Assembly: GCA_041665485.1 (NCBI GenBank)
Contig: JBAYIT010000005.1
Span: 1,974-65,973 of the forward strand
Direction of reading: 5' to 3'
Length of the DNA: 64,000 nt
From: Candidatus Shapirobacteria bacterium
GTDB lineage: Bacteria > Patescibacteriota > Microgenomatia > UBA12405
The notes beneath the pieces are model-generated. The model saw nothing but the letters and a program-made list of their open reading frames with translations. It was not told the origin of the DNA and made no database searches. The translations under genes were made by a program, and so were the position numbers. This document shows, in pieces, positions 1 through 38,343 of the stretch (positions within the stretch are counted from its first letter, which is position 1; each line of letters begins with the position of its first letter).

Positions 1-1939
1 AACCGAAACTGTCGGTGGTGCCACCAATTTGGCCACGGCGGGAAGAAAGATCACCAATAACTGTGCCTAAGAATTCCGAGGGAGTGGCCACCTCGAACTT
101 CATGATCGGCTCGAGAATCAAAGGCCTGGCTTGAGCAAAAGCATCTTTAATGGCGTAAGCGCCGGCTAATTTGAAGGCAGCTTCGGAAGAATCAACTTCG
201 TGATAAGTGCCATCATAGACAGTGACTTTAACGTCGGTGGCCGGATAACCGGCAATAATCCCCTTCTGGAGAGTTTCTCTAACCCCTTTCTCAATGGCAG
301 GAATAAAGTTGCTAGGAATAGCTCCACCTTTAACACCGTTGACAAATTCGACACCTTCACCCCTGTTCTTGGGCTCAATTCTGATTTTACAATGACCGTA
401 TTGACCGTGACCGCCGGATTGGTGGATATATTTTCCCTCACCTTCGGCATTGGCCGAAATAGTTTCCCGATAAGCGACTTGAGGAACACCGGTTTTGACA
501 TTAACACCAAATTCGCGCTTGAGACGATCGACAATGATTTCAAGGTAAAGCTCGCCCATACCGGCAATAATGGTTTGACCGGTTTCGTGGTTGTAAGTGA
601 CCTTAAAAGTTGGATCTTCAGTAGTAAGGCGGTTAAGGGCAACGCTCATTTTTTCCTGATCATCGGTAGTACCGGGCTCAATGCTTAGAGAGATAACCGG
701 GTCGGGGAACTGGATGGGAGAAAGAGAGATGGGGTTGGCTTTGTCGCAAAGAGTGTCGCCGGTGACGGATTCTTTAAGACCAATACAGGCGACAATTTCT
801 CCGGCATAACCTTCTTCAATCCCCTCGCGCTTGTCGGCGTGCATCAATAAAAGACGGCCGATACGTTCGGATTTCTGCTTGGTGGGGTTGTAGACCTCAA
901 CACCGGTTTTAACGGTGCCAGAATAGACACGGAGATAAGAGAGGGTGCCAACATGGGCGTCGGACTGGACTTTGAAAATAAGACCGGAAAAGGCATCGTC
1001 TTTTTCGGGACGGCGGGTGATTTTTTCGCCGGTAACAACGTCAAAACCTTCGGTGGGAGGAAGATCGATAGGAGAAGGAAGATAATCAACGATAGCGTCT
1101 AAAATCGGATGAATACCCTTGTTTCGCCAAGCGGCGCCACAGAAAACCGGAAAAAGTTTGCGGTGAATAGTGGCTTGCCTTAGAGCTGATTTCAACTCGG
1201 GAATAGAAATTTCCTGATCGTTTAGGAATTTTTCCATTAGGGCTTCGTCTTCCCCGGCAATTTTTTCCACCATTTGGGCACGGGCCTTGGTGGCAGAATC
1301 AAGATATTCCGGAGTGACATCTTTGACGGTAAACTCGAGACCTTCTTCGTCTTTGTCGTAAATAATCATCTTCATTTCCATTAGATCGATAACACCGGTA
1401 AAATCGTGCTCTTCACCGATGGGCAAGACCATAGGAATGATAGGACAGTGGAGTTTTTGGTTGATGGAATCGAGAGTTTTTTGGAAAGAAGCGCCAACTT
1501 TGTCCATTTTGTTGACAAAAGCCAGGCGGGGAACGCCGTATTTGTCGGCCTGACGCCAGACGGTTTCGGATTGGGCCTGAACACCGGCATTGCCATCGAA
1601 AATCATGATAGCGCCATCCAAGACACGCAAAGATCGCTCGACTTCGGCGGTGAAATCGACGTGGCCGGGGGTGTCGATGATATTGATACGAATGTCTTTC
1701 CAAAAGGTGGTAATACAGGCAGATTGAATGGTGATGCCCCGCTCGCGCTCCTGATCCATGGTGTCGGTGGTGGTGGTGCCCTCATCGACGGAGCCAATTT
1801 TGTGGATTTTACCGGTATAAAAGAGGATGCGCTCGGTGGTGGTGGTTTTACCGCCGTCGATATGGGCAATAATGCCGATATTACGGACTTTGTGCATAGG
1901 AACATCACGATTTTTGGAAAGTTTGATTTGATCAGCCAT
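1..1939 (-). CDS. fusA: elongation factor G (partial; C-terminus runs off the window start)
   Basis: Minus-strand frame open from ATG (rc of cat at 1937-1939) to position 1. N-terminus reads MADQIKLSKNRDVPMHKVRNIGIIAHIDGGKTTTTERIL (G1 P-loop), then RGITIQSA and IIDTPGHVDF. Absent from the ORF track because there is no in-window stop. Confidence 0.9.
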   Translation of the reverse strand, partial: MADQIKLSKNRDVPMHKVRNIGIIAHIDGGKTTTTERILFYTGKIHKIGSVDEGTTTTDTMDQERERGITIQSACITTFWKDIRINIIDTPGHVDFTAEVERSLRVLDGAIMIFDGNAGVQAQSETVWRQADKYGVPRLAFVNKMDKVGASFQKTLDSINQKLHCPIIPMVLPIGEEHDFTGVIDLMEMKMIIYDKDEEGLEFTVKDVTPEYLDSATKARAQMVEKIAGEDEALMEKFLNDQEISIPELKSALRQATIHRKLFPVFCGAAWRNKGIHPILDAIVDYLPSPIDLPPTEGFDVVTGEKITRRPEKDDAFSGLIFKVQSDAHVGTLSYLRVYSGTVKTGVEVYNPTKQKSERIGRLLLMHADKREGIEEGYAGEIVACIGLKESVTGDTLCDKANPISLSPIQFPDPVISLSIEPGTTDDQEKMSVALNRLTTEDPTFKVTYNHETGQTIIAGMGELYLEIIVDRLKREFGVNVKTGVPQVAYRETISANAEGEGKYIHQSGGHGQYGHCKIRIEPKNRGEGVEFVNGVKGGAIPSNFIPAIEKGVRETLQKGIIAGYPATDVKVTVYDGTYHEVDSSEAAFKLAGAYAIKDAFAQARPLILEPIMKFEVATPSEFLGTVIGDLSSRRGQIGGTTDSFG

Positions 1940-2002
1940 GGGAATCAGTTAACAGTTTTCAGTTACGAGTTGCGAGTTGAAAAACAGTTTAATTAAATAA
2001 TT

Positions 2003-2035
2003 TAAAAAATAAAAAAGATTGCAGGCATGGCCTGC
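2003..2035 (-). terminator. rho-independent terminator candidate after the Bro-N gene, about 65 nt upstream of the fusA start
   Basis: Perfect 6-bp GC stem gcaggc-atg-gcctgc (2021-2035). On the minus strand it is followed by UCUUUUUUAUUUUUU (rc of 2003-2020). Confidence 0.45.
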
Positions 2036-2065
2036 GAATGAAGTTATGATAACACAAGTACAGAA

Positions 2066-2107
2066 AATTTTTAATTTTAAATTTTTAATTTTTAAACAAT
2101 TTTTAAT
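2066..2107. repeat. 42-bp AT-rich dispersed repeat, copy 1 (second copy at 59768-59809, 41/42 identical)
   Basis: aatttttaattttaaatttttaatttttaaacaatttttaat matches 59768-59809 with one mismatch. Both copies sit on the upstream side of a minus-strand core gene (fusA, gatB) at the edge of an accessory insertion. Confidence 0.7.
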
Positions 2108-2398
2108 ATCTAATTTTTAAATACTAAAAAAACAAAACAGGGGTGGGGTGGAGAGGAGGAAAAGGGCTTGATATAATTCGACATGGGAAAATGTGTAATT
2201 AGTATGTCGATGCATGATTGGGGACGTAACATTCAAGAAAGAATAGATATAATTGATGAGGTTAGTGGTTGCAGTTACTTTTCTGCTTGTGGGACTAAGG
2301 GAAACCGTTGCTCGGCTACCAAAGAAGAACAGTGCCCGGCGACAAAATTTCCAGAACTGGCGCAAGAAGTTGAAGCGAGATGGAAAGGAGAAAAGAAT

Positions 2399-3238
2399 CT
2401 ACTTTAACTCTTTTTTCTTATCTTTTGCTTTTGGTAAATAGTTTTCTTTGGAAACGATTGGCCGACCTAATTCTTTTTCGGTTTGTTTTCTGGCATTTCC
2501 AGCAATGTTTCCGCCCCTGTTGGCGACTTTTTTATTTGCCACAAAAGTATCTGGCTTTTCTTGTTGAGAAATTTCTGTGGTCACCCGCTCACCAAGCATG
2601 TTAAAAATTAATTCCAAATCATTCATATGATCACGTAAATTTTGCCGTTTTAATCCCTTTAATCTTTTGTATTCACTGGGTGTTACGCCAAAAGTGGCTT
2701 TGGAAATTTCAGCGGTCAAAATCTCATATTCTTTTTGTTCTTTTATACCTCGTTTTTGCCACTCATCGGTTAATTCTTCGCGAATGGCAATGCCCCGCAT
2801 TCGTCTCTCTATCCAACTTTCGGGGTACCCCTTGAGTTTATAGAGCAGTCTTGTTCTTTTAGTTGCCAATTCCGGATCTTCAATTTCTTGGACTCGCTCA
2901 TAGCCAACTTTTGCTAGCCAGCGTTTGAATGGCTCGGCTTTGGGTGAGGGAATTGATTGAATAATACGAAAAATTCCTTCTGTATTAGCACAATCTGTTT
3001 CGCGCATTTTTCCATCTGGGGCGAGTACCTTCAACCGGTGACAATTTGTCACCACTTCACTTCCTTCGTCTCTTAATCTTTGAGAGAGTTTGTTCCAATA
3101 TTTTCGTGCTGTTTGATCGTCTTGTTGGCTTGTAAGCGCCTGGACGATATCTACCATTGAAAACCACCACTCGTTATTGTAAATAACTTTGCGTATTTCT
3201 TTTTTTTGAAATATGGCTATTTTTGTTGTGATTTCCAT
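2399..3238 (-). CDS. Bro-N domain protein (DinD / phage antirepressor-like)
   Basis: 279 aa. N-terminus has IYNNEWWFSMVDIVQALT, typical of Bro-N/DinD family proteins; C-terminal half is unrelated. Family assignment is from memory of the domain, not a search. Confidence 0.5.
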   Translation of the reverse strand: MEITTKIAIFQKKEIRKVIYNNEWWFSMVDIVQALTSQQDDQTARKYWNKLSQRLRDEGSEVVTNCHRLKVLAPDGKMRETDCANTEGIFRIIQSIPSPKAEPFKRWLAKVGYERVQEIEDPELATKRTRLLYKLKGYPESWIERRMRGIAIREELTDEWQKRGIKEQKEYEILTAEISKATFGVTPSEYKRLKGLKRQNLRDHMNDLELIFNMLGERVTTEISQQEKPDTFVANKKVANRGGNIAGNARKQTEKELGRPIVSKENYLPKAKDKKKELK

Positions 3239-3454
3239 GCTGGTTTAATTGTATTCCATTTCTTTATACGAAAACAGCCATGTTTGCCTCACACTGTGGC
3301 CTTGCGGGTGTTAGTGTCATGAGGGCTTCGAGCCCTTCAAACAGGTTATTTTAACAAAAGACGACTGTAATTTTTCAATCCCTCTAAATCTCCCTTTAAC
3401 CCGTCAGGTGCCGGGCACGGCAATGGGACTTTAATAAAGATGTTGGTATAAAAT

Positions 3455-4648
3455 ATGGAGATGAAGAAAAAAACGGTGGGGATAATTGGGGGAGGGATTG
3501 GGGGGTTGGTGGCGGGATTACGGCTTTGCCAAAAAGGCTATAAAGTAACGATTTTTGAAAAGGGGGAGGTGTTGGGGGGGCTTTTAGCCGGATTTAAGGT
3601 GGAAGGGACAAACTTGGAGCGGGCCTACCACCATATTTTTGAGAGTGACAAAGAGGTAATTGGTTTAATTAAAGAATTGGGATTGTCAGAAAAGATGGTT
3701 TGGAAAAAAGGAACAATCGGGGTGTATTGGCAAAAAGAGATGTGGCCATTTAATGGCCCAGTCGATTTGCTACGATTTGGGGCGATTCCCCTACTGGACC
3801 GGATTCGGATGGGATTAGTTGGCTTGTGGCTTCAAAAAGATGAAAACTACCAAAAATATATAAAAGTTACGGCGGTGAGTTGGATGAAAAAGTGGGTGGG
3901 AAAGGCGGGCTTTGAAGTGGTGTGGGAGCCACTACTAAGGGCCAAATTTGGGGAAGATTACGACAAAGTATCAATGGCCTGGCTCTGGGCCCGGATTCAT
4001 ACCAGAAGCTCTAAACTTGGCTATTTACTGGGCGGGTTTGAGCAAATTACTAATCGGCTGGCGGAAGAAATTAAAAAAGCGGGCGGAGTTATAAAACTAA
4101 AGACAGAAGTAGATTTGGAAAAAGTTAAAAAAGATTTTGATTTAGTGATTAATACGGGGCCGGTTCCGAGAGTAAAGTATTTGGGAGCGGTGATAGTGGC
4201 ATTTACGTCGAGCCAAAATTTAAGCCAGTATTATTGGCACAATATTAATGACCCTCAGTCCCCCTTCCTGGCTTTTATTCAACATACCAATCTTGTTGAT
4301 AAGAGTGAGTACGGCGGGAAACATGTTTATTATATGGGCGCTTACCTTTCTCACGATGACCACAGATTTGAAGCGGATGAAGAAACGATTAAGAAAGATT
4401 TTCACGAATACTTAAAGCGGATTTTCGCCGATTTTGACCCGGGGCAGATTGATCAGGAGTGGGTGTTTAGATTTAAAAATGCCCAGCATGTGGTGACGAC
4501 GGATTACCAAGAAATAATAAATAAGACAAAGAAGACCAATAGGACCGATAAAATAATTAATTTAAATTTTGCCATGATTTTTCCCCAGGACAGAGGAATT
4601 AATTATGCGGTGCGGGAGGCGGAAAGACTAATAAAATGTCGTTTTTAA
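3455..4648 (+). CDS. FAD/NAD(P)-binding oxidoreductase (amine-oxidase / UDP-galactopyranose-mutase-like fold)
   Basis: 397 aa. N-terminal Rossmann dinucleotide motif VGIIGGGIGGLVAG followed by an acidic residue (FEKGEVLGG); substrate unknown. Confidence 0.6.
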   Translation: MEMKKKTVGIIGGGIGGLVAGLRLCQKGYKVTIFEKGEVLGGLLAGFKVEGTNLERAYHHIFESDKEVIGLIKELGLSEKMVWKKGTIGVYWQKEMWPFNGPVDLLRFGAIPLLDRIRMGLVGLWLQKDENYQKYIKVTAVSWMKKWVGKAGFEVVWEPLLRAKFGEDYDKVSMAWLWARIHTRSSKLGYLLGGFEQITNRLAEEIKKAGGVIKLKTEVDLEKVKKDFDLVINTGPVPRVKYLGAVIVAFTSSQNLSQYYWHNINDPQSPFLAFIQHTNLVDKSEYGGKHVYYMGAYLSHDDHRFEADEETIKKDFHEYLKRIFADFDPGQIDQEWVFRFKNAQHVVTTDYQEIINKTKKTNRTDKIINLNFAMIFPQDRGINYAVREAERLIKCRF

Positions 4649-6024
4649 CAATAAAGTTTTTGCTATTTTTTTTGGCAGTTTGGGGGCTGGCAATAATTTT
4701 TCGGCCCTACAAGAGAGCTTATAAATTATTGATAATTGGGGCGAATTTAGTTTTCTACAGTTTTTTTGGAGTAACAGGACTGGTGGTTTTAGTAAGTGAT
4801 GTTTTACTAAATTACGGACTGCTAAAAATTTTGGGGAGACTAAAAGCGAAAAAAAAGGTTTTGGGGGTTGGAGTGGGTTTGAATTTACTGCTTTTGAGCA
4901 GTTATAAATATTTTAATAATCTGACGGGAATAACGGGGATGGAAATAATTGCCCCGATTGGAGTGTCGTTTTTTACTTTTAAAATTATTAGCGTTCTGAT
5001 TGATAGCTACCGACAAAAGATTCAGGTTAACAGTTTGGCCGACTACTTGGCCTATGTTAGCTTTTTTCCCCAAATATCGGCCGGGCCGATTGCCAGGTTT
5101 AAAGAATTTGCCGAGGATATAAACCAAGAGGAGCAAGGAGAGACGGAAAACAACAATATTGGGCCAAGATTTTGGACCTTAATAATTAGTGGCTGGCTTA
5201 AAATGTATTTAATTGGGAGCTACTTGTATGAAATAGTTAATCAAACGATTAATGCACCTCAAAGCTTTGGCCGGGTGGACTTAATTTTGGGCATGATGAG
5301 CTTGAGTTTTTTTATTTTTGCTAATTTTAGTGGCTATTCGGACATTTCGGAGGCGCTGGCGATGGCGCTGGGATTTAGAACGCCAAAGAATTTTAATAAC
5401 CCTTATCGGGCAGTGGGGATTCGAGATTTTTGGCAAAGGTGGCACATGAGCCTATCGACCTGGCTTAAGGACTACCTTTATATACCAATGGGGGGAAACC
5501 GGCGGGGACGGGCATGGAAATATTGCAATTTACTGGTGACCATGGTGGTGGGCGGAATGTGGCACGGAGCGGAAATTAACTTTTTGGTGTGGGGAGGGCT
5601 ACAGGGAGAAATGCTAATGATTGATCATTTTTTGCATGATACGGTGTGGCCAAAATTGAGAGGGGTGGCTAACTGGATAAAAATAGCGGGGAGAGGCGGG
5701 GGGTGGCTGATAACCTTTGGACTGATAAATATTAGTTGGATTATCTTTTATCCAAAAAACATGGAGGCGTCGGTGACCTATTTTGAATACTTGATTAGAC
5801 CAAGAGAGAACCTGGTGGTGCTGGGCTCGGGTGGGCTTCTGACAATCCTAATTTTGGCGGGGATTTTGAGCGTGAGAGGAGATAAATTTGAGGAAATAAT
5901 GGCCAAAACGTTAACTAAAGCCCCGGGAGTGGTAAGATATGTAGTACTAGTAGTGATATTTTATTTGATTATTACCTTCGGACCAAGTAACTATGTGGCT
6001 CCAGCCGCCTACTTTAATTTCTAA
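4636..6024 (+). CDS. MBOAT-family membrane O-acyltransferase (AlgI/DltB-like)
   Basis: 462 aa, multi-pass membrane protein. Has the MBOAT signature RWHMSLSTWLKDYLYIPMGGNRRG with the catalytic His. Confidence 0.85.
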   Translation: MSFLTIKFLLFFLAVWGLAIIFRPYKRAYKLLIIGANLVFYSFFGVTGLVVLVSDVLLNYGLLKILGRLKAKKKVLGVGVGLNLLLLSSYKYFNNLTGITGMEIIAPIGVSFFTFKIISVLIDSYRQKIQVNSLADYLAYVSFFPQISAGPIARFKEFAEDINQEEQGETENNNIGPRFWTLIISGWLKMYLIGSYLYEIVNQTINAPQSFGRVDLILGMMSLSFFIFANFSGYSDISEALAMALGFRTPKNFNNPYRAVGIRDFWQRWHMSLSTWLKDYLYIPMGGNRRGRAWKYCNLLVTMVVGGMWHGAEINFLVWGGLQGEMLMIDHFLHDTVWPKLRGVANWIKIAGRGGGWLITFGLINISWIIFYPKNMEASVTYFEYLIRPRENLVVLGSGGLLTILILAGILSVRGDKFEEIMAKTLTKAPGVVRYVVLVVIFYLIITFGPSNYVAPAAYFNF

Positions 6025-6889
6025 ACGCCGAAAAGAATCGACAAGATTGTGGTTGTGGGCAGTAATAATACTGACTTCGGTGACTGGCTTGTTTAAAATT
6101 AGGACGCAGGCAAAATCGGCAGAAATGGTTAGCCCGCTGGCACTGGCTCAACTACCGACAACGATACCAACAATTATGCCGACAACGATACCGGCAATAA
6201 CACCAACGATAATACCAACGATAGCACCAATAATAGAAATAAAAGAAATCCAACCAGCCAATATATTAATTATTGGTGACTCGATGGTAATGGAAGGCTT
6301 TGGCCCGGTAGTGGCAAACGATCTGTTGGCTTATTCGGACTTCAAAGTAGTGAGAAAGGGGAAATTTTCAACCGGACTAAACAGGACGGATTTTTTTGAT
6401 TGGTATAAATACTCACTAGAGCTGATTGAGGAATATAAGCCAGAGGCAATGGTGATAATGTTTGGCGCCAACGACAACCAAAATATTTTGGACGGAGGGG
6501 GCAGGGCTTACACGGTAGGCGAGGCGGGCTGGGACGAGGTGTATACCCAAAGAGTGGCCCAATATATGGCCTTAATTAGCCCAATGGTAGAAAAAGTTTA
6601 TTGGGTGGGACAACCGCCGGCCAGAGAAGCGGGGTTTTCCGGAAGATTGAAGCACCTAAACGATATCTATGAGGCCGAAGCGAAAAACTGGAGCAATATT
6701 AAATTTATTTCGACGTGGGAGAGGTTTACTGTTGAGGGGAAATATCAGGCCTCGGTGGCAAACGATCAGGGACTAAAACAGAGGGTAAAAACAGATGACG
6801 GAATTCATTTGACCATTCATGGGGCAAAAATTATGAGTGAAATGGTGATTGGAGTAATCAGGCAAGACCTTAATCTGGCGACGAGGTAA
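5993..6889 (+). CDS. SGNH/GDSL-type hydrolase (AlgJ/DltD-like partner of the MBOAT protein); true start probably internal (about 6124, MVSPLALAQ)
   Basis: Signal/TM segment, PT-rich linker, then IIGDSMVMEGFG (GDS block) and MFGANDNQ (block III), DGIHLT near the C-terminus. The annotated start overlaps the MBOAT gene. Confidence 0.7.
   Translation: MWLQPPTLISKRRKESTRLWLWAVIILTSVTGLFKIRTQAKSAEMVSPLALAQLPTTIPTIMPTTIPAITPTIIPTIAPIIEIKEIQPANILIIGDSMVMEGFGPVVANDLLAYSDFKVVRKGKFSTGLNRTDFFDWYKYSLELIEEYKPEAMVIMFGANDNQNILDGGGRAYTVGEAGWDEVYTQRVAQYMALISPMVEKVYWVGQPPAREAGFSGRLKHLNDIYEAEAKNWSNIKFISTWERFTVEGKYQASVANDQGLKQRVKTDDGIHLTIHGAKIMSEMVIGVIRQDLNLATR
6148..6232 (+). repeat. imperfect tandem repeats (about 24 bp units) encoding a P/T/I-rich linker in the SGNH hydrolase
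   Basis: ccgacaacgataccaacaattatg / ccgacaacgataccggcaataaca / ccaacgataataccaacgatagca encode PTTIPTIMPTTIPAITPTIIPTIAP. Confidence 0.6.
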
Positions 6890-6973
6890 AGAGAGGAATT
6901 ATGAATTTACGAATTTAGAATTTACGAATCTGGAGATAAGAAATAAAATTTAAGAATTTAAAAAATAAGATTT

Positions 6974-7393
6974 ATGAATATCGATAAACGGAATCATTTG
7001 GAAAAAATTCAAAAAGTATTGGTGATGGTGGCGGAAAAAACAAATACGTTGGGTATAGATTGGTATTTAGGATCGAGCGGGGCATTGATGGTTCATGGAA
7101 TAGATGTTGTGCCTAAAGATTTGGACATTTTAACTAATTGGAAAAACATCGAAAAAATAACCGGTGAATTTAAGTCATTTGTTGTTGACAATAACCCCGA
7201 CGGAATTAAACTGGAAATTGAAGGGATTGAGGTGGAGGTGTTAGGATTGTCGGATTTGAGAGAACCAAAACTTGTTTTGTTTAAAAATAGGCTGATACCG
7301 GTTAGTTCTCTTGATGATTTACTTTTATTTTACAAAAGTAGACCCGGTAAAACGGAGATAGTGAGGATGATTGAGGAAAAAACGAGAGGCTAG
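6974..7393 (+). CDS. minimal nucleotidyltransferase-fold protein (Lnu / ANT(2'')-like)
   Basis: 139 aa. IDWYLGSSGALMVHGIDVVPKDLDI fits the pol-beta-type NTase GS...DxD motif and resembles the lincosamide NTase stretch YWLDGGWGVDVLTG...DIDI (recalled, not searched). Confidence 0.45.
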   Translation: MNIDKRNHLEKIQKVLVMVAEKTNTLGIDWYLGSSGALMVHGIDVVPKDLDILTNWKNIEKITGEFKSFVVDNNPDGIKLEIEGIEVEVLGLSDLREPKLVLFKNRLIPVSSLDDLLLFYKSRPGKTEIVRMIEEKTRG

Positions 7394-7431
7394 GAAATTA
7401 GGTGTGGACGTGGCGCAATGACGTTAGATGT

Positions 7432-8787
7432 TTACGGCGTAACCGTAGGAGAAGCGGTGGCGGTGGAGGCGCCGGTTTTGAGGTCGGTGCCGATAGTGAA
7501 GACGATGTCGTAAGTGCCGGTGGCCGGCAGAGTGGCAGAGAAAGTGGCCGGGAAATCGGCTAGTTTAGACTGGAAATAAGCCGAAGACGAGGCTAATTCC
7601 GGCTTGGTGTTGACCAAATTTTCGGTGGCTTTGGTTTTGCTGTTGCCAGTAGTGACATCGGTAAAGCCAAGAGCGACAAGCTTTTGCTTTAAGACTGAAG
7701 CTTGACCGTTAATATCGGTGCCGTTTAAAACTTGAAGCTTGAGAGTTTTGCTGATTTCGGCAATAGAAGGAATGGGAGTGGCAGTGGGAGGAGCAACGGC
7801 AGTGGTGGGGGTGACTTGATTGCCCGGCTCTAGGGGGGGCTCGCCATTAAGAACATTATTGCGACTAACAACGTACCAGATAATGATCGAGGCCAGAGCG
7901 GCGGTGACGATGAAAACAGCAACGATGGGGAGGTAGTTCTTTTTTGGTTCCATTGGTTTTTGGATAGGTAAATTACTATTTGGTAATGAGATTATAGCAG
8001 AAGAAAGGGCGCCGATGACCGGCAAGGGCAAATTGGCGGGGAGGCTAAGCTGGAGAGCAATTTGAGAGGGATTGTATTCGGTGGACTCGATCTTGGGGAA
8101 AATCTCCGATTTTTCCTTGAAATCGACAGGGAGAAAGACCTTTTCCACCGGAGAGCCAAAATAAAGCTGGCTGTAGTTGACGATTTTTTGAATATCATTT
8201 TTTTGATTTTTGACGATACTGGAAAGATAAACCTCACTACCTTGGGCTAAAACCAAAACTGACTCCTGATGAGTTTGGGGATAAACGGCAAAATAGTTGG
8301 GTTTGTAGTATTTGGAAAAAACATTGGCAATGGATTGGGAAACCGAGGCGGTGGTGATAACTTTAAGGCCAAGCTGGCTAAGATTGGCGTAAAGATTTTT
8401 AAGCTTTTCCTGGCAAAGAATGGTGGTTTTGATTAAAGTCTTGCCGGTTTTTTTCTCTAAAACGGCCGAAATCGAATCAGACTCGAGAGGAAAATCGACG
8501 TAACCCTTGGCGAGAACGATGAGCTCTTTGTTGTCGATAGTATCGATTTCGGAATCGTAGACGAAGGTGCGGGTGAGAATAACGTCGTCGGGGATGATTA
8601 ATTTGGCTGATTTAAGGCGGTTTTGACTGAGATAGACTTTAAGAGGAGAGAGGTCGGCCTCTTCCAAGGGCTGGTAGAGATTGAGGTCGAAAGAAGTGAG
8701 GGTGGCAACTGAAGAGGAGATGAGGTAAAGGTCGAGCCCGGCACTTTTGGGCCAAACAACCAGCTGGGGACGAGAAAAGAGTGACAT
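7432..8787 (-). CDS. membrane protein: PilM/FtsA-like actin-fold N-terminal region, TM helix, C-terminal LytR_C-like domain
   Basis: 451 aa. N-terminus GLDLYLISSSVATLTSF ... AKLIIPDDVILTRTF resembles PilM phosphate motifs. TM segment YLPIVAVFIVTAALASIIIWYVV. C-terminal LKLQVLNGTDINGQASVLKQKLVALGFTDV resembles LytR_C. Confidence 0.45.
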   Translation of the reverse strand: MSLFSRPQLVVWPKSAGLDLYLISSSVATLTSFDLNLYQPLEEADLSPLKVYLSQNRLKSAKLIIPDDVILTRTFVYDSEIDTIDNKELIVLAKGYVDFPLESDSISAVLEKKTGKTLIKTTILCQEKLKNLYANLSQLGLKVITTASVSQSIANVFSKYYKPNYFAVYPQTHQESVLVLAQGSEVYLSSIVKNQKNDIQKIVNYSQLYFGSPVEKVFLPVDFKEKSEIFPKIESTEYNPSQIALQLSLPANLPLPVIGALSSAIISLPNSNLPIQKPMEPKKNYLPIVAVFIVTAALASIIIWYVVSRNNVLNGEPPLEPGNQVTPTTAVAPPTATPIPSIAEISKTLKLQVLNGTDINGQASVLKQKLVALGFTDVTTGNSKTKATENLVNTKPELASSSAYFQSKLADFPATFSATLPATGTYDIVFTIGTDLKTGASTATASPTVTP

Positions 8788-26072: not shown

Positions 26073-27830
26073 TTAGGCAACTATTTCAGCATAGATTCGC
26101 CTTTTGCCTGAACCGGCCGATTCCTCTTTGGTAATTTTGAGTTTACCAATCTCGCCGGTGGCAGACACATGGGGGCCAGTGCAAACCTCTTTTGAAAAAG
26201 AGTCGATGGTGTAGACAGAAACTATTTCTGGGTATTTATGGCCAAAAAAGGCCAGAGCGCCCTGATTTTGGGCATCGGTAAATTTCATCTCTTCTCGAGT
26301 GACAGGTAGGTTTTTGGAAATTATTTGGTTGACAATTTTTTCGACTTCTATAATTTGGTCTGGAGTTAATTTTTCTTGATGGCTAAAGTCAAAACGAAGG
26401 CGGTCGGCGGTAATATTGGAACCTGATTGCTCTACATGATTGCCCAAAACTTGGCGCAAGGTGGCATGTAAAAGATGGGTGGCAGTGTGGTATTTGGTAA
26501 TAACTTCGGAGTTATCAGCCAGGCCGGATTTAAATTTCCCAGCCGAAAGAGTTTGGGAAAGTTTGATGTGATCAGATTTATATTTTTCAAATTCGCCTTC
26601 ATCTAAATCGAGATTGTTTTTGTTTAATTCTTCCTTAATTAATTCAAGGGGAAAACCAAAATTTTGATAAAGATCAAAAGCCTCTTTGCCGGTAACTTTG
26701 TGATTTCTTTTGATTAATTTATTTATTTCGTTTAGTCCTTTATCTAACGATTTCCTAAATCGGTTTTCTTCGGCTTCTAGAATTGATAATATTTTGACTT
26801 TGTTCTCATTTAATTCAGGGTAGGTGCCGGCGTAATTGGATTGGTTATCTAAAACAGATTGGCCGATAATTGAACAAATATTTTGTTCAATGCCGAGTAA
26901 TTTGCCATGGCGAATACTGCGGCGGATGAGGCGGCGGAGAACGTAGCCGGCTTCTTTGTTGCCAGGCTCGACTCCGTCGGCGATGATAAAAACGGCGGAG
27001 CGGATGTGGTCGGCAATAATTCGAAATGATTTTTGATAATTTAGATCTTGATAACTTTTCCCCGAAATTTCTTCAATTTTTTTGATAATCGACTGCCAGA
27101 TATCAGTAAGATAATTGTCGGAAAAACCATTGAGGACAGCAATGGTCCGTTCGACTCCCATGCCGGTGTCGATATTGTTTTGAACTAATTTTTCATATTT
27201 ACCCTGATCGTTTTTTAAATATTGAATCAAAACATCATTCCAAATTTCCAACCAATTAGGATTTTTAGGATCAAATACTTTGGGTGGATTATTGTCTTTC
27301 CACCAATAAAACATTTCCGTGTCGGTGCCACAAGGGCCGGTAACTCCAGGTGGCCCCCACCAATTATCAACAAGAAAATTAATTCGTTCCGGGGATAAAC
27401 CTAAATCGAGCCAGAGCTTTTGCGAGACAATGTCTTTTTCAGTGTCGCTATTGCCAGCAAAACAAGTGACAGCCAATTTATCAACAGAAATATTTAGGGT
27501 TTTGGTTAAAAATTCAAAACTCCAGGGAATGGCTTCGGATTTAAAATAGTCGCCCAAAGACCAATTGCCAAGCATTTCAAAAAAAGTGTGGTGATAAGAG
27601 TCGCCGACCTCATCGATGTCCCCTGTCCGAATACATTTCTGAATATTGGTTAGTCTCTTGCCAACCGGGTGAGATTCACCGAGAAAATAAGGAACTAAAG
27701 GCTGAATGCCGGAGGAAGTAAAAAGGGTTGATGGGTCGTTTTCAGGAACTAAAGGAGCGCTGGGGATTTCGACATGGCCCTTTTCGACAAAAAAGGCAAT
27801 GAATTTAGCTTTGAGTTCCGAGGCGGTCAT
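26073..27830 (-). CDS. alaS: alanine--tRNA ligase (short form lacking the C-terminal C-Ala domain)
   Basis: Class II AlaRS catalytic core and editing-domain HxxxH motif (HTATHLLHATL); 585 aa. Confidence 0.9.
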   Translation of the reverse strand: MTASELKAKFIAFFVEKGHVEIPSAPLVPENDPSTLFTSSGIQPLVPYFLGESHPVGKRLTNIQKCIRTGDIDEVGDSYHHTFFEMLGNWSLGDYFKSEAIPWSFEFLTKTLNISVDKLAVTCFAGNSDTEKDIVSQKLWLDLGLSPERINFLVDNWWGPPGVTGPCGTDTEMFYWWKDNNPPKVFDPKNPNWLEIWNDVLIQYLKNDQGKYEKLVQNNIDTGMGVERTIAVLNGFSDNYLTDIWQSIIKKIEEISGKSYQDLNYQKSFRIIADHIRSAVFIIADGVEPGNKEAGYVLRRLIRRSIRHGKLLGIEQNICSIIGQSVLDNQSNYAGTYPELNENKVKILSILEAEENRFRKSLDKGLNEINKLIKRNHKVTGKEAFDLYQNFGFPLELIKEELNKNNLDLDEGEFEKYKSDHIKLSQTLSAGKFKSGLADNSEVITKYHTATHLLHATLRQVLGNHVEQSGSNITADRLRFDFSHQEKLTPDQIIEVEKIVNQIISKNLPVTREEMKFTDAQNQGALAFFGHKYPEIVSVYTIDSFSKEVCTGPHVSATGEIGKLKITKEESAGSGKRRIYAEIVA

Positions 27831-27831
27831 G

Positions 27832-27845
27832 AGGGAATTATAACA
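27832..27845 (-). promoter_or_regulatory. conserved extended -10 motif TGTTATAAT-TCCCTC abutting the alaS ATG (possible leaderless transcript)
   Basis: Minus strand reads tgttataattccctcATG; the same 15-nt motif recurs upstream of rpsO and nusA. Confidence 0.35.
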
Positions 27846-27853
27846 ATTTTCGA

Positions 27854-28564
27854 CTATATCCTACCTAGAGATGTTGGGTTTGTTAGATATTGAGAATGAT
27901 CTGGCAATTTCGCATCCAGCAATGCTTGATTTCTTCTTCTACAAGCTCTACATTGTCCACATTGTTGACCATCACTAGATGGTTTTAAACAACTGAAAGT
28001 TGCGACACTTAATAGGTCAGCTTCTAATCCTTCTTCGGAAACGGCTTGAGCAAAGACGGTAGATTTGTCTATATTTAATAGAGGTGCTGATATTTTAAGC
28101 CTACTCCCGGCCCCTGAAACACTATTTCTTGGAGTTAATGCTTGCATTTGTTGAAGGCAGTCTAGCATGGCTCTAGTTTGTGGCATATCTCTCGCATCTT
28201 CTAGAATACTACCGTTAGCGACTTCAATACCACCATGCATCCTGGCATAATCTGCGGCTAATCCATGAATTGAAAAAACGTTGCGCAAAATTGGTAACCC
28301 CCCAAATTCTCCAACACCCCAAAAATTTGTGGCCAAAGATTCAACTCGTAATACTCTTAGTTCAACTCCACATATTTCAGCAACTTGTTTGGCTGACATG
28401 TATTCCTGATAAGCATAATGAGCCCCCCAAGATATGTGCAATCCAACTACTTCCTGTTGGTCACCTCGATATCTTGCTTCTAGTTTTTTGTGCCAAAGTA
28501 AGGCAAATGAGTCAGGACCTCCCGATACTTCGACAAAGACTTTTGGTTTTTGGAATTCAGGCAT
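27854..28564 (-). CDS. queC: QueC-family PP-loop ATPase (7-cyano-7-deazaguanine synthase-like)
   Basis: SGGPDS PP-loop; C-terminal zinc motif CGQCRACRRR as in QueC (CGxCxxCxxR); overall colinear with E. coli QueC from memory. Confidence 0.7.
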   Translation of the reverse strand: MPEFQKPKVFVEVSGGPDSFALLWHKKLEARYRGDQQEVVGLHISWGAHYAYQEYMSAKQVAEICGVELRVLRVESLATNFWGVGEFGGLPILRNVFSIHGLAADYARMHGGIEVANGSILEDARDMPQTRAMLDCLQQMQALTPRNSVSGAGSRLKISAPLLNIDKSTVFAQAVSEEGLEADLLSVATFSCLKPSSDGQQCGQCRACRRRNQALLDAKLPDHSQYLTNPTSLGRI

Positions 28565-28572
28565 ATGTGTTG

Positions 28573-29358
28573 CTAATTTGTAATGTGCTTGACCAGTAAA
28601 CTATTATAAATTTCCACACAGTGCGCAACGTGATCGCGAAAACCCCTATCTTCTGGAAATTCGGTAACATCAGGAACTCTTTCTGTTGGCGATTCAAGAC
28701 AAGTGCTTTGAAGGACGCGAGTGTATAGATGACTATGATCGCCCTCTAGATTATCTAAATTGACGTCATTAGCACTTGGCCAAACGAGATACGAAGGATC
28801 AAAGTCTAAATTAAAACAACTAAAGACTGATGGGAAAACAGAATGAGGATATTGACGAAATTTAGTGGCGTCAACCAAAAAGTATGGCTTTTGGTTGGCT
28901 CGGCACCACTCGATTTGTTTAGCTAAGAGTTCCCAACCGGATTCAATAAATGGAAATAAAGGGCTAGCACCGACTTCTGTTTTCTTTTTCATGCGAGAAT
29001 CGATGCTAAGTCGAGGATCCCGAATAAGGAAAGCTATGGGGTATTGTGTTAAAGAAGCTAGTAGAGGAAAATTCTCACCAACTTGATAGGGCATTTCTTT
29101 TATAACCAGGCCACCGCGTGTTTTTGGCTTATCGCACAGATGACTTATATCAATTGGGTTAAGAATCTTTCTTAAAGCAACTTCGGTCGTATCCCCGCGA
29201 TAATAAGTAGTTTCAAATGGTTCGTGACAATAATATTGTACTTCTGGTGACTGCCAAAATACCCGAGCAAAAACGGTAGAACAACAACGAGGCGGAGATA
29301 CTGCTAAATAGATGTTTGGATAATTTTGCCTTATTTGTTCGGCAGATATTGATCCCAT
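28573..29358 (-). CDS. sulfotransferase-like P-loop protein (tentative)
   Basis: VSPPRCCSTVF resembles the 5'-PSB loop; AFLIRDPRLSIDSR resembles the 3'-PB RDPRD-type motif. Assignment is from motif memory only. Confidence 0.4.
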   Translation of the reverse strand: MGSISAEQIRQNYPNIYLAVSPPRCCSTVFARVFWQSPEVQYYCHEPFETTYYRGDTTEVALRKILNPIDISHLCDKPKTRGGLVIKEMPYQVGENFPLLASLTQYPIAFLIRDPRLSIDSRMKKKTEVGASPLFPFIESGWELLAKQIEWCRANQKPYFLVDATKFRQYPHSVFPSVFSCFNLDFDPSYLVWPSANDVNLDNLEGDHSHLYTRVLQSTCLESPTERVPDVTEFPEDRGFRDHVAHCVEIYNSLLVKHITN

Positions 29359-29471
29359 TGGCTTTGAATGTTAACATCAGGAGGACGAGGTGTCAACAAC
29401 CCACTACATATTGCCTACATATTTAACTTAGATTAAACAGCTTGGCTTGAAAGACGCAGGATTTTTATTAC

Positions 29472-34161: not shown

Positions 34162-34506
34162 ATGGCAGAAAGTTTTAAGTGGGAAAAATTTAATATTACA
34201 ATGGCAACTAAAGACGAACTAAGTGGTCTAAAATGGTGGACACGTAGGGGACGTGTGCCAAAAGATGGTGGTTCAGACAACTTAACTGGTGGAACTGCAG
34301 AAGTGGCAACAATTATTCGACAACGTGGTCAGGTGGCAAGGATATCTGGAACAGGAGAAGGGGCAAATACCTATCTTGCAGCGCAGGTGGTTTTGGCCCG
34401 ACTTAAGCACCATGAATGGACTGGGGTAAGTTACAGGATGGGTTCTGTCGATGAGGAAGGAGGTATCAAACGGAGAGTTGCTTACTTAAGGCTAAATTTG
34501 GATTGA
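34162..34506 (+). CDS. hypothetical protein in the compositionally distinct islet; preceded by an extended -10 (TGATATAAT) 6 nt before the ATG
   Basis: 114 aa ORF; tgatataat at 34147-34155 then ATG at 34162. Confidence 0.35.
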   Translation: MAESFKWEKFNITMATKDELSGLKWWTRRGRVPKDGGSDNLTGGTAEVATIIRQRGQVARISGTGEGANTYLAAQVVLARLKHHEWTGVSYRMGSVDEEGGIKRRVAYLRLNLD

Positions 34507-34508
34507 AT

Positions 34509-35826
34509 TTACTCAACTGCTCCATTGGCATAAACCACAGCTTTTGGGCCAACTAGGTTACCTCTGATTAGACACATAATGGTTTCTGAAACAGTTTCCC
34601 AACTCGGTATTATTCGACCATCTGGTTCAGTAGTAAACAGTGACGTTAAAAAAACGAGAACACGCTTAACATCTGGGTGTTGATCTAACGTCGCAAAGTG
34701 CGTATTTTCCCTATCAGTTAATGCTTGGGTCAAATCACCAATCGCACTTTCTAGATTCCTAATCGCCGCTAATCTTAATCTGCGCACATGTTTCCGTCCA
34801 GGTTGAAAGTCTTGTTGTCTGTCCGGTAGTTTGAGAACAGATTCAAAATCATTTCTTGCTGGTACAACTAAACGACTGCCTATACAATCTGAAATATGGT
34901 CGTGATTTACGAGGAACATATTTGCTAAAACCAGAAGGTCTGTAAGATCAAAGTCCCCAAATTTGATATTATCAAACCTAACGGAAGGATGGTCTATTTT
35001 TTTTAATACCTTCTGTTACGTTCCAAGTAGAAGCTCGTTGGCCGGGGACTTTTGTAAAGCAAAAAAAATGAGGATTTGCGCTTAGCGTTGCACTAATGAT
35101 TCTGTCGTTCATTTGATAAGGTTTACCGTCCAGCGCTTTAATTGAGAATCCTCTTGATAACTCAAGTATCTGACGTGCTGTTGAGTTAGGATGTGCTTCT
35201 AAGATCGCCAGAATAGCCCCAGGACACCCTAATATTCTTAACCCTCTTTCTTCATCAAGATAGGTTACTGGTGGTTTTCGTTTGCCTTTTGTACCGGTTT
35301 GTTCGCTGATAACAGGTTTAACTCCTTCAGTTTTTTCAATGGCTAATTCCGAGGGTGAAGAGTCTCTGATGGCAATAACGTCTTCTCTGTGCTGTCTGGT
35401 GGAGGTAAGAAGATCTTCAGATACAGCTCCAGCTTTGAACCCTAGCTCTAGGGTGGGTATTAAACCTTCAATACCTGCGAGATAATCTGGAATAGCTGGT
35501 TGGGCTACTTCTCGCCAAACTCTTTGTGATGAATCCATGTCGCATAATTCCGACTGTAGTGCTTCGATATAACCTGCGACACATTTCACTTGTTCGGTTT
35601 CTGCAACCCTTGAGATTACTTTATCAGCTAGCGCTGACACATCCAATAGACCGTCTGGAGTCAATGTCACCTGACCTGAGGCGAGAGGTTCAGTTTCTTG
35701 AACACTTTGTCTAAGTAATACTTGCTCTGATTTAAGTCTTGCTTCGATAGCTGAAATCGCTTGCTTACCAAAAAGGGCTTTTGATAGTGCCGACCTAGCC
35801 TCTGAAAGATTCTGTTCTGCTGACAT
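34509..35826 (-). pseudogene. about 435-aa gene of unknown function split by a frameshift in a T8 (A8 on the coding strand) homopolymer at 35003-35010
   Basis: ORFs 34978..35826 and 34509..34919 join into one continuous frame if the A8 run is read as A7 (...GIKKIDHPSVRFDNIKFGDFDLTDLLVLANMFLVNHDH...). Codon usage is unlike the flanking core genes. Confidence 0.5.
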
Positions 35827-37754: not shown

Positions 37755-37812
37755 AATGGCATATGTTATAATGAATTCAATCACGCCCCTCGAGCAATCG
37801 GGGGGATTATTT
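37755..37812 (+). repeat. hairpin/T-run element copy 1: TGTTATAAT - aatcacgcc - hairpin - attattttt
   Basis: atgttataatgaattcaatcacgcccctcgagcaatcggggggattattttt; the plus strand looks like an extended -10 followed by a terminator-like hairpin. Confidence 0.5.
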
Positions 37813-38343
37813 TTGGCATTGTAAAAAAGTAAATCTGGTTTTAAATAATCCTCGTTTGATATTCCAAATTTCTCTACCCAAGTGCCCGTGTTCATAAACA
37901 ACCAATACTTGCTTTTTCTTTTCTATTAAATATCGATAGATTGGCTCAAAGTCGCCATCACCAGTAAAAAAGACAAAAGTTTGATAATTTTCTTCGATAG
38001 ATCGATAAACACTCATACATATTTCAATATCGAAATCACATTTCCGAATTTTAATTAATTTACCCCTAATATTGGCAATGGTGATGTATTTAACCGGCTT
38101 AGTGGTTAGGTTATAGCCAATTTTTTTTATTTGAGTTAAAAAATTTTTTGACTGAGGATTACTATCAGAACCATAATAAAAGTTAATTGATTCGATTTGA
38201 GAATAGGTTTTTAGATATTTATAAAGTTTATTTGGGTCGACTGGTTTTACCAACTCATCCCGCCAGCCATAAACATTGGCGTAGTCAATAAAAACCGCCG
38301 TTTTGCCTTTTAAAAGTAGTTTCTGTGGGCTGGTGTCAGACAT
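37807..38343 (-). CDS. NYN-domain (LabA-like, PIN-like) ribonuclease
   Basis: AVFIDYANV ... FVFFTGDGDFEPI NYN signature. Confidence 0.7.
   Translation of the reverse strand: MSDTSPQKLLLKGKTAVFIDYANVYGWRDELVKPVDPNKLYKYLKTYSQIESINFYYGSDSNPQSKNFLTQIKKIGYNLTTKPVKYITIANIRGKLIKIRKCDFDIEICMSVYRSIEENYQTFVFFTGDGDFEPIYRYLIEKKKQVLVVYEHGHLGREIWNIKRGLFKTRFTFLQCQK

Follow-up and report, generated by a model that had tools for sequence, protein, structure and literature searches.

What does a QueC-family enzyme do beside a sulfotransferase? The question is raised by a 64,000-nucleotide stretch of contig JBAYIT010000005.1 from a Candidatus Shapirobacteria bacterium (assembly GCA_041665485.1, positions 1,974 to 65,973 of the forward strand; we call the whole stretch the window), in which two short genes follow each other on the minus strand. 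The first (28573..29358) encodes a 261-aa protein resembling the sulfotransferases that use 3′-phosphoadenosine-5′-phosphosulfate (PAPS), and the second (27854..28564) a 236-aa PP-loop ATP pyrophosphatase of the QueC family with a zinc ribbon. An earlier sequence-only reading of this DNA had seen in the pair a possible new nucleoside or small-molecule pathway outside queuosine synthesis. It placed both open reading frames (ORFs) on the minus strand exactly where we find them, and the motifs it quoted (SGGPDS, the zinc site, SPPRCCST and RDPRLS) all translate as stated; the spacer, given as 9 nt, is in fact 8 nt (28565-28572). Our analysis supports that reading, and we conclude that the two genes very probably form a functionally coupled module that runs on PAPS and ATP and has no part in queuosine synthesis.

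The 236-aa protein has the QueC fold. It scores 65.8 bits against the Pfam QueC family (PF06508, gathering score 22), and its AlphaFold2 (AF2) model (pLDDT 91.2) superposes best on the QueC structures 2pg3 and 3bl5 (TM-score 0.66-0.77; Foldseek E = 2e-7), with Cap9 (9nto_B) third. Cap9 is also its best sequence match in the PDB (E = 6e-4). Like canonical QueC (PF06508 cluster 1), it keeps the PP-loop SGGPDS (28508..28525, minus strand), which binds the α- and β-phosphates of ATP and is invariant in its subfamily and in wider QueC relatives. It also keeps the RN motif, the Asp of the YPDC motif and the C-terminal four-cysteine zinc-binding motif C192-x9-C202-x2-C205-x2-C208 (CLKPSSDGQQCGQCRAC; 27941..27991, minus strand), which contains an invariant R206 and whose spacing is one residue longer than the canonical C(x)8CxxCxxC. 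Of the three canonical substrate motifs, two have been replaced: YxQxHxxE has become WGAHYAYQE (W46-G-A48...E54), where just E54 is kept, and YPDC has become LEDA (L121-E-D-A), where D123 alone is kept. A 2026 study of the Escherichia coli enzyme defined the canonical catalytic signature and found Y35, R99 and Y131 to be essential (PMC13329287). The residues of the 236-aa protein that align with the essential Tyr of YxQ and the Tyr of YPDC are both replaced.

Family models place the protein outside the characterized groups. It stays below both NCBIfam cut-offs for QueC (TIGR00364, 42.6 vs 150.3 bits; PRK11106, 26.2 vs 378) and below that of QatC (NF041925, 12.3 bits, cut-off 280); PADLOC assigned it a generic QueC model and returned nothing for the 261-aa protein. 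Equivalog scores, motifs and genomic context together establish that it is not a canonical QueC, as expected of a paralog that acts outside queuosine synthesis. The name that NCBI and JGI give it, 7-cyano-7-deazaguanine synthase, is probably an over-annotation, given a profile score that does not reach a third of the equivalog cut-off. Repurposed QueC scaffolds outside queuosine synthesis have been described before: Cap9 of the type IV cyclic-oligonucleotide-based anti-phage signalling system (CBASS) and QatC of QatABCD. Unlike these, the 236-aa protein has neither a CD-NTase and Cap10 nor QatA, QatB and QatD as partners, its partner being a PAPS sulfotransferase, and it lacks both the Y/FxQ and the YxDC motifs that Cap9 retains.

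The partner is a predicted PAPS-dependent sulfotransferase, on the evidence of profile and model alike. The 261-aa protein scores 29.2 bits against Pfam Sulfotransfer_5 (PF19798, gathering score 23.2). Searched singly against PDB sequences it gave no match, and a family profile was required: a profile of 30 homologs matched the CurM sulfotransferase (4gbm; E = 8e-5) and tyrosylprotein sulfotransferase 1 (TPST1), with both PAPS-binding motifs aligned. The 5′-phosphosulfate-binding loop SPPRCCST (29275..29298, minus strand) aligns to SSPRSGST of CurM, and R24, S27 and T28 of this loop are invariant among the 30 homologs. The 3′-phosphate-binding motif RDPRLSIDS (28996..29022, minus strand) aligns to VRHPYSVIES of CurM and VRDGRASVHS of TPST1; R113, D114, P115, R116 and S121 are invariant in the family, whose alignment holds 58 invariant positions. 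The AF2 model (pLDDT 94.4) adopts the sulfotransferase fold that the sequence-only reading had anticipated for this protein, so that a model with some other fold, which that reading had named as a refuting outcome, did not result: the top matches in a Foldseek search of the PDB were all sulfotransferases (CurM, TPST1/2 and OLS; TM-score 0.4-0.53). The CurM/OLS and tyrosylprotein enzymes are thus its best profile and structural matches, with an aligned PxxRSGST-type 5′-phosphosulfate loop and RxxxxSxxxS 3′-phosphate motif, whereas identity to them is only 12-16%, the TM-score about 0.5, and the 261-aa protein belongs to a class of stand-alone enzymes of 260-280 aa. Its uncharacterised family, PF19798, has invariant motifs of its own (HEPFE, KEMPYQ, ETGW and DNLxGxHxHLY).

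Is the adjacency of the two genes accidental? The subfamily of the 236-aa protein is very rare. Word-indexed searches found few members (with the protein alone, itself and one relative; with the subfamily alignment, five), so an exhaustive HMMER search was needed to define it, and this recovered seven members at E < 1e-10 among 1.84 billion cluster representatives. E86, R94, E122 and R206 are invariant in the subfamily. R94 is the conserved Arg of the RN motif; the other three are variable in the next-closest QueC relatives and distinguish the subfamily from canonical QueC. R206, inside the zinc knuckle CGxCRxC, is present in 11/11 subfamily members vs 1/20 of the next-closest relatives. Across the wider subfamily FGQ is retained and the Tyr of YPDC is not, and the clade of the window is the most divergent of all. 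About half of the subfamily are tandem proteins (P0123, P0125, P0127, P0130; L028, 5978-7204; L066, 7443-8684) whose N-terminal QueC-like domain is degenerate and has no SGGxDS loop, an arrangement suggestive of a pseudo-dimer with one catalytic half.

We gathered loci of this subfamily by way of the QueC-like gene, without regard to the sulfotransferase. Flanking sequence is sufficient in 15 distinct loci (the window, L001, L028, L043, L044, L053, L056, L057, L059, L060, L062, L063, L064, L065 and L066), and in every one of them searches with hidden Markov models (HMMs) placed a gene of the sulfotransferase family at a distance of zero to three genes from the QueC-like gene; two further contigs end too early to judge. 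These loci span six clades with 25-50% mutual identity, and the layout of the pair varies: the genes may be co-directional (overlapping, or with a spacer of 8-60 nt), divergent, or separated by one to three inserted genes. A linkage that survives such divergence and rearrangement demonstrates that the two genes are functionally coupled, and its recurrence in every related locus takes the pairing far beyond chance. Seen from the QueC-like side, the pairing is obligate. No tgt, queD, queE, queF or folE was seen in the 15 loci, and no Cap10 or Qat gene in the related ones; unlike canonical QueC, the subfamily has in no case queD or queE as a neighbour and in every case a sulfotransferase. In the 64-kb window, too, a survey that is not exhaustive (gene list, and Pfam on ten unclear ORFs) recognised no gene resembling queD, queE, queF or tgt, in agreement with the sequence-only reading. 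The hosts appear to be mostly low-GC, Patescibacteria-like genomes with small gene sets, judging from the window, L044 and general gene content.

The pairing also appears to be new to the literature. The sequence-only reading had stated that no QueC paralog of Qat, type IV CBASS or the 7-deazaguanine DNA-modification (dpd) clusters pairs with a sulfotransferase-like enzyme, and full-text searches of the searchable literature returned no paper that combines or describes the two. A 2026 survey of PF06508 distinguished ten clusters, none with a sulfotransferase partner. The 236-aa protein represents a functional subfamily new to the repurposed QueC scaffold.

Which substrates does the module handle? 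The genes that travel with the pair in related loci give the best indications. In L053 a bifunctional ATP-sulfurylase/adenosine-5′-phosphosulfate kinase (PAPS synthase) lies directly downstream of the QueC-like gene and before a 29%-identical sulfotransferase homolog, and in L055 a PAPS synthase directly follows the QueC-like gene, the contig ending within it. The presence of PAPS synthase in these operons provides independent, if indirect, evidence that the module runs on PAPS. An acetyltransferase of the Acetyltransf_3 (RimJ/RimL) family, a GCN5-related N-acetyltransferase (GNAT), occurs in seven loci (L043, L044, L054, L059, L063, L064 and L066), and Hint-type histidine triad (HIT) proteins in L059, L064 and L066. 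A PNP_UDP_1-family protein, weakly AMP-nucleosidase-like and hereafter called PNP-like after the purine nucleoside phosphorylases, is encoded between the two genes of the pair in L064, after both of them in L065 and next to them in L062 and L063; its usual companion is a class I methyltransferase (L062, L063 and L065).

Genes for aminoacyl-tRNA synthetases (aaRSs) flank the module in 7/15 loci. Bona fide aspartyl-tRNA synthetase (AspRS) genes stand in L028, L063, L065 and L066, with overlapping GNAT, sulfotransferase and AspRS reading frames in L063; a lysyl-tRNA synthetase is found in L044 and an alanyl-tRNA synthetase (AlaRS) in the window. L066 has two AspRS genes, one canonical (469 bits; 2601-3929, minus strand) and one divergent (5989-7440, plus strand). 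The divergent paralog scores 231 bits vs a cut-off of 353, retains the QSPQ motif and intact motifs 2 and 3, has an altered N-terminal region and lies 2 nt upstream of the QueC-like gene. Its ortholog in L054, a member of a different clade, lies 49 nt downstream of the QueC-like gene (1251-1688, plus strand). This paralog may be an aaRS-like biosynthetic or resistance enzyme. On a rough estimate that assumes one AspRS gene in ~800, the probability of finding AspRS at most three genes from the module in at least three independent clades is far below 1e-3. None of the 44 sulfotransferase loci without a QueC-like gene has AspRS, HIT or PNP genes within 8 kb.

Other neighbours were seen once. In L062 a CobW/COG0523 GTPase lies directly downstream of the QueC-like gene (2995-3570) and is possibly a zinc chaperone for this zinc-dependent enzyme; L065 has a NUDIX hydrolase upstream of the sulfotransferase (6265-6732) and L064 a second, larger HIT/DcpS-like protein (3735-4505). 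The module of L060 stands beside an integrase, a Fic protein, an Erm-like rRNA adenine methyltransferase and an APH-type kinase (132-6998), a setting that looks like a mobile or resistance island. At L043 a CD-NTase-like gene and Cap15, a CBASS pair (3920-5454), lie ~1.2 kb from the QueC-like, GNAT and sulfotransferase genes with a PLD-like gene between them. The 407-aa (L059) and 427-aa (L060) neighbours of the module are unrelated to each other or to any other locus.

With these partners (PAPS synthase, AspRS, HIT, GNAT and PNP-like proteins), an obligate and conserved module gives the earlier suggestion of a new pathway a sharper focus, on the chemistry of nucleoside sulfates or sulfamates. 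The gene logic resembles that of the clusters for aminoacyl nucleoside sulfamates. In the ascamycin cluster a sulfotransferase and PAPS genes are accompanied by a methyltransferase, a phosphoribosyltransferase and two homologs of AlaRS (PMC4257720). AcmF, an AlaRS-like protein, transfers alanine from Ala-tRNA onto the nucleoside sulfamate, and self-resistance comes from AcmD, the additional AlaRS (PMC12945691). Taken as a set, the wider loci of the module recall the ascamycin/dealanylascamycin and nucleocidin clusters of Streptomyces: beside the sulfotransferase, some encode a nucleoside salvage-type enzyme, a methyltransferase, PAPS synthase, or an aaRS or aaRS paralog that may be an extra copy. 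The sulfotransferase is present in every locus, PAPS synthase in L053 and L055 only. The loci differ from those clusters in their hosts, which appear to be mostly low-GC and Patescibacteria-like instead of actinomycetes; in their candidate S-N-forming enzyme, a QueC-like PP-loop protein instead of the proposed AcmN, AcmG or AcmI; and in the linked aaRS, mainly AspRS and not AlaRS.

A second likeness is to the immunity genes of microcin C-type systems (MccE/RimL acetyltransferases and MccH HIT hydrolases), which the Acetyltransf_3 GNAT, Hint-type HIT and AspRS genes of the related loci recall. AspRS is the target of microcin C-type warheads, and MccE and RimL are the enzymes that acetylate compounds of the aminoacyl-sulfamoyladenosine type. 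Aspartyl-adenylate mimics are detoxified by HIT hydrolases. Dealanylascamycin and 5′-O-sulfamoyladenosine (AMS) hijack AspRS and form Asp-sulfamate adducts (PMC12262901), and a study of N-alkylated aminoacyl-sulfamoyladenosines names acetylation-based resistance as a concern for such compounds (PMC3817062). Unlike in microcin C-type systems, none of the GNAT, HIT and AspRS genes is present in the window, and the GNAT is related to MccE and RimL at family level only. No MccB-type ThiF-family gene was present among the scanned neighbours; short peptide genes of the MccA kind were not searched for.

These likenesses suggest a route in which the two enzymes would act in sequence. Sulfotransferases move SO3 from PAPS onto a hydroxyl or an amine. 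The 261-aa enzyme would accordingly sulfate a hydroxyl of a small molecule, as its motifs, its fold and the operon-encoded PAPS synthase of relatives suggest, and the accessory genes point to the 5′-OH of adenosine or a similar nucleoside as the acceptor. Enzymes of the QueC family use ATP to adenylate an acidic oxygen, after which a nitrogen nucleophile displaces AMP: QueC itself converts a carboxylate into an amide and then a nitrile, and Cap9 and QatC join a carboxylate to the N-terminal amine of a protein, so that proteins are deazaguanylated in type IV CBASS and Qat. From the fold and motifs that it has in common with QueC, the 236-aa protein probably also uses ATP to adenylate an acidic group, which a nitrogen nucleophile then attacks. 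By analogy with QueC acting on the carboxylate of 7-carboxy-7-deazaguanine and with CysD acting on sulfate, that group could be the newly made sulfate ester; displacement of AMP by ammonia would then give a sulfamate, that is, a 5′-O-sulfamoyl nucleoside of the AMS/dealanylascamycin type. That this fold could adenylate a sulfate oxygen is made plausible by CysD, which belongs to the PP-loop superfamily and transfers the adenylyl group in ATP sulfurylase as one of its subunits. Such a sulfamate would mimic AMP, and aaRSs would convert it into tight-binding aminoacyl-sulfamates. AspRS, its divergent paralog, the RimJ/RimL-family GNAT, the HIT hydrolases and the PNP-like enzyme might serve aminoacylation, self-resistance or detoxification; this last step draws on the gene sets of related loci, since the genes are missing from the window.

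These steps differ in strength. From gene context we infer that the acceptor is a nucleoside and that the product is connected to aaRSs, and a sulfated or sulfamoylated nucleoside acting on aaRSs is the product we tentatively favour, at somewhat less than even confidence. That the QueC-like enzyme itself forms the S-N bond is a conjecture by analogy and rather doubtful. The boldest version, in which the protein would be a sulfamate synthetase, the first enzyme known to turn a sulfate ester into a sulfamate, with AspRS-hijacking pro-toxins made by Patescibacteria, is possible and, on balance, unlikely. The formation of the S-N bond in natural sulfamates has been stated to be unknown (PMC9113183).

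Several observations weigh against a sulfamoylated nucleoside. Every chemical step of the module is inferred. A full-text search for PP-loop enzymes and sulfamates returned no paper, and no PP-loop enzyme is known to amidate a sulfate ester; the described ascamycin cluster, moreover, has no QueC-like gene (PMC4257720). The GNAT, HIT, PNP, AspRS and PAPS genes were all unseen in the 64-kb window, where just the core pair and AlaRS are present. For PAPS synthesis, this covers the gene list, Pfam on ten unclear ORFs and tblastn with PAPS synthase, a survey that is not exhaustive. The GNAT resembles MccE and RimL at the level of the family, and the HIT, PNP and AspRS genes, which are also housekeeping genes of small genomes, could in part be syntenic passengers. 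The Gln of FGQ is lost in the window protein and its one close relative and kept by all other members of the subfamily, so the clade of the window may differ in function.

The sulfotransferase family also has a life outside the pair. It is large and strongly conserved, with at least 355 matches at ~50% identity, all unannotated, in hosts that include Acidobacteriota, Chloroflexota, Myxococcota and Bacteroidota. When sampled from this side, in 49 species-representative genomes, a QueC-like gene accompanies it in only 3/49 loci; the enzyme therefore also works in other contexts. The commonest of these, in ~10-12 loci or about a quarter, is a four-gene operon of sulfotransferase, SbnA, SbnB and a ThrC-like pyridoxal-phosphate enzyme (L003, 10001-14229; also L004, L008, L018, L029, L033, L037, L040 and L041), with hosts among Bacteroidota, Rhodothermales, Xanthomonadaceae, Opitutales, Myxococcota and others. 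Both SbnA and SbnB exceed the NCBIfam equivalog cut-offs in these operons. SbnA and SbnB together synthesise L-2,3-diaminopropionate (Dap), and the operon looks like an uncharacterised pathway that combines Dap with sulfation. This context suggests an amino-acid acceptor for the sulfotransferase family and likewise weighs against a nucleoside. SbnA/SbnB and the QueC-like gene never occur together in the 49 + 15 loci. A neighbour-joining tree places the QueC-linked sulfotransferases on deep branches and unites those that stand alone or are linked to Dap genes in a derived group, so that a change of acceptor is possible. The 251-aa protein downstream of a stand-alone sulfotransferase (L002) was considered as a hidden QueC-like protein and rejected.

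How do other explanations fare against a nucleoside product? An amino-acid product, for which the Dap operons just described are the chief argument, is in our view unlikely. Here the sulfotransferase would N- or O-sulfonate Dap or serine and the QueC-like enzyme would adenylate the carboxylate and close or amidate it. One version is a closure of N-sulfo-Dap to the monobactam nucleus in the manner of β-lactam synthetase, followed by acylation by the GNAT; another is an antimetabolite of Asn, Gln or Asp. The β-lactam and carbapenam synthetases are PP-loop enzymes that close β-lactams, Dap is N-sulfonated before ring closure in sulfazecin biosynthesis, and the link to Asp and AspRS could fit an aspartate analog. 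Yet the Dap genes and the QueC-like gene never co-occur, for which reason we rank the monobactam-type closure lower; the PNP-like, HIT and NUDIX neighbours indicate nucleosides or nucleotides, and the AspRS paralog would be left without a role. It is distinctly unlikely that the pair, with GNAT, HIT, a PNP-like enzyme and a resistant AspRS, is instead a resistance module that inactivates a foreign nucleoside antibiotic or aminoacyl-adenylate mimic. GNAT and HIT proteins are known immunity enzymes against such compounds, the island-like setting of L060 with its kinase, rRNA methyltransferase, Fic protein and integrase would suit this role, and the low third-position GC of the window pair (see below) is compatible with horizontal acquisition. 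An operon-encoded PAPS synthase and two strictly coupled, sequential-looking enzymes are more typical of biosynthesis, however, and we know of no PP-loop enzyme that inactivates an antibiotic.

The remaining alternatives stay closer to known QueC biology. The QueC-like enzyme could still handle a deazapurine or purine carboxylate, with the module making or salvaging a modified base or nucleoside for tRNAs of the tRNA-Asp type, where queuosine is located; like Cap9, most of the subfamily has retained FGQ(x)5E, RN and the Asp of YPDC, and AspRS and a nucleoside phosphorylase-like gene are linked. The absence of tgt, queD, queE, queF and folE from the 15 loci, the replacement of the QueC-essential aromatic residue of YPDC, and GNAT and HIT genes that would have no role make this improbable, and we know of no sulfated tRNA nucleoside. 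Anti-phage defence would cast the QueC-like enzyme as joining a small acid to the N-terminus of a protein, in the manner of Cap9 and QatC, the QueC-family enzymes that deazaguanylate proteins in type IV CBASS and Qat, with the sulfotransferase as an accessory. Cap9 being the best PDB sequence match and the CD-NTase-like gene and Cap15 of L043 speak for it. We consider it quite improbable: the loci have no conserved effector and no Cap10, QatA, QatB or QatD; the operon of a CD-NTase and a Cap10 resembling tRNA-guanine transglycosylase is absent from the window and from 14/15 loci, and L043 has its CD-NTase-like gene and Cap15 with no Cap10; no KAP ATPase or TatD neighbour of the qat type was found at the window or related loci; the QatC and PADLOC results point to nothing more specific than QueC; the pair lies amid housekeeping genes in the window and most loci; and a scan of viral contigs found no member of the subfamily. 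An ordinary preQ0 synthase beside an unrelated sulfotransferase, finally, would account for the public name, the passed Pfam threshold and the kept PP-loop and zinc motif. With both equivalog cut-offs missed by far, the residues aligned with two essential Tyr replaced and a sulfotransferase linked in 15/15 loci that show no que genes, we reject it as hardly credible.

The surroundings of the pair in the window are those of a housekeeping region. The two genes sit in a long co-directional run of MltG, RuvX, a sortase, AlaRS, the pair, a RodZ-like helix-turn-helix protein, FtsK and prolyl-tRNA synthetase (ProRS), and the other genes of the window are typical of candidate-phyla-radiation genomes (EF-G, RpoBC, GatCAB and the DnaK operon). 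The GC content at third codon positions (GC3) of the pair is 0.25 and 0.30 vs 0.37-0.42 in flanking housekeeping genes, at equal total GC, which suggests a foreign origin or a different codon regime. The 113-nt spacer that precedes the sulfotransferase gene contains a promoter-like site (TTGACA-17-TAACAT, with a TG; 29368..29396, minus strand); it is a consensus match only, and the count of such sites in the region is not above the shuffled expectation. AlaRS (26073..27830, minus strand; NCBIfam PRK01584, 732 bits vs a cut-off of 529) follows 23 nt downstream of the QueC-like gene on the same strand and may be associated with the module or merely its neighbour. An extended -10-like element, TGTTATAAT, read by eye just upstream of the AlaRS start in the 23-nt spacer (27831-27853) and the end of the QueC-like gene, suggests that AlaRS may have its own promoter and be transcribed independently of the pair. 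An Rfam search of the window and the surroundings of the pair found no RNA element. Elsewhere, at 2399-3238 (minus strand), 34162-35826 and 37807-38343 (minus strand), the window has a BRO-N domain protein of a type common in phages and mobile elements, an NYN-domain protein and three successive ORFs without a Pfam match, the last of these located between ProRS and RNase J; all may be small mobile or accessory insertions in the housekeeping region.

Textbooks present QueC as an enzyme of small molecules, and only recently did its scaffold prove to serve phage defence as well, by modifying proteins. The pair is a further reuse of that scaffold, in strict coupling with sulfation from PAPS. The pairing is real, conserved and rare, and it makes the question of the sulfamate S-N bond testable with two small enzymes; the mechanism itself is a proposal. 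Even if that chemistry is wrong, annotation as 7-cyano-7-deazaguanine synthase would falsely imply a capacity for queuosine and preQ0 in these genomes. If the proposal is right, the module would make a sulfur-containing nucleoside toxin rather than queuosine, and two small enzymes would provide a compact route to sulfamates and supply the missing step that forms the S-N bond. Few known inhibitors of aaRSs surpass aminoacyl-sulfamoyl adenosines in potency. Ultra-small Patescibacteria would then make AMS-like pro-toxins that hijack the aaRSs, mainly AspRS, of hosts or competitors, with AspRS paralogs, GNAT and HIT enzymes providing aminoacylation and immunity, and with the divergent AspRS paralog secondary metabolism would have a new case of an aaRS-like enzyme. 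Bacteria of the candidate phyla radiation, usually seen as metabolically minimal dependants, would thereby gain a chemical weapon or signalling molecule.

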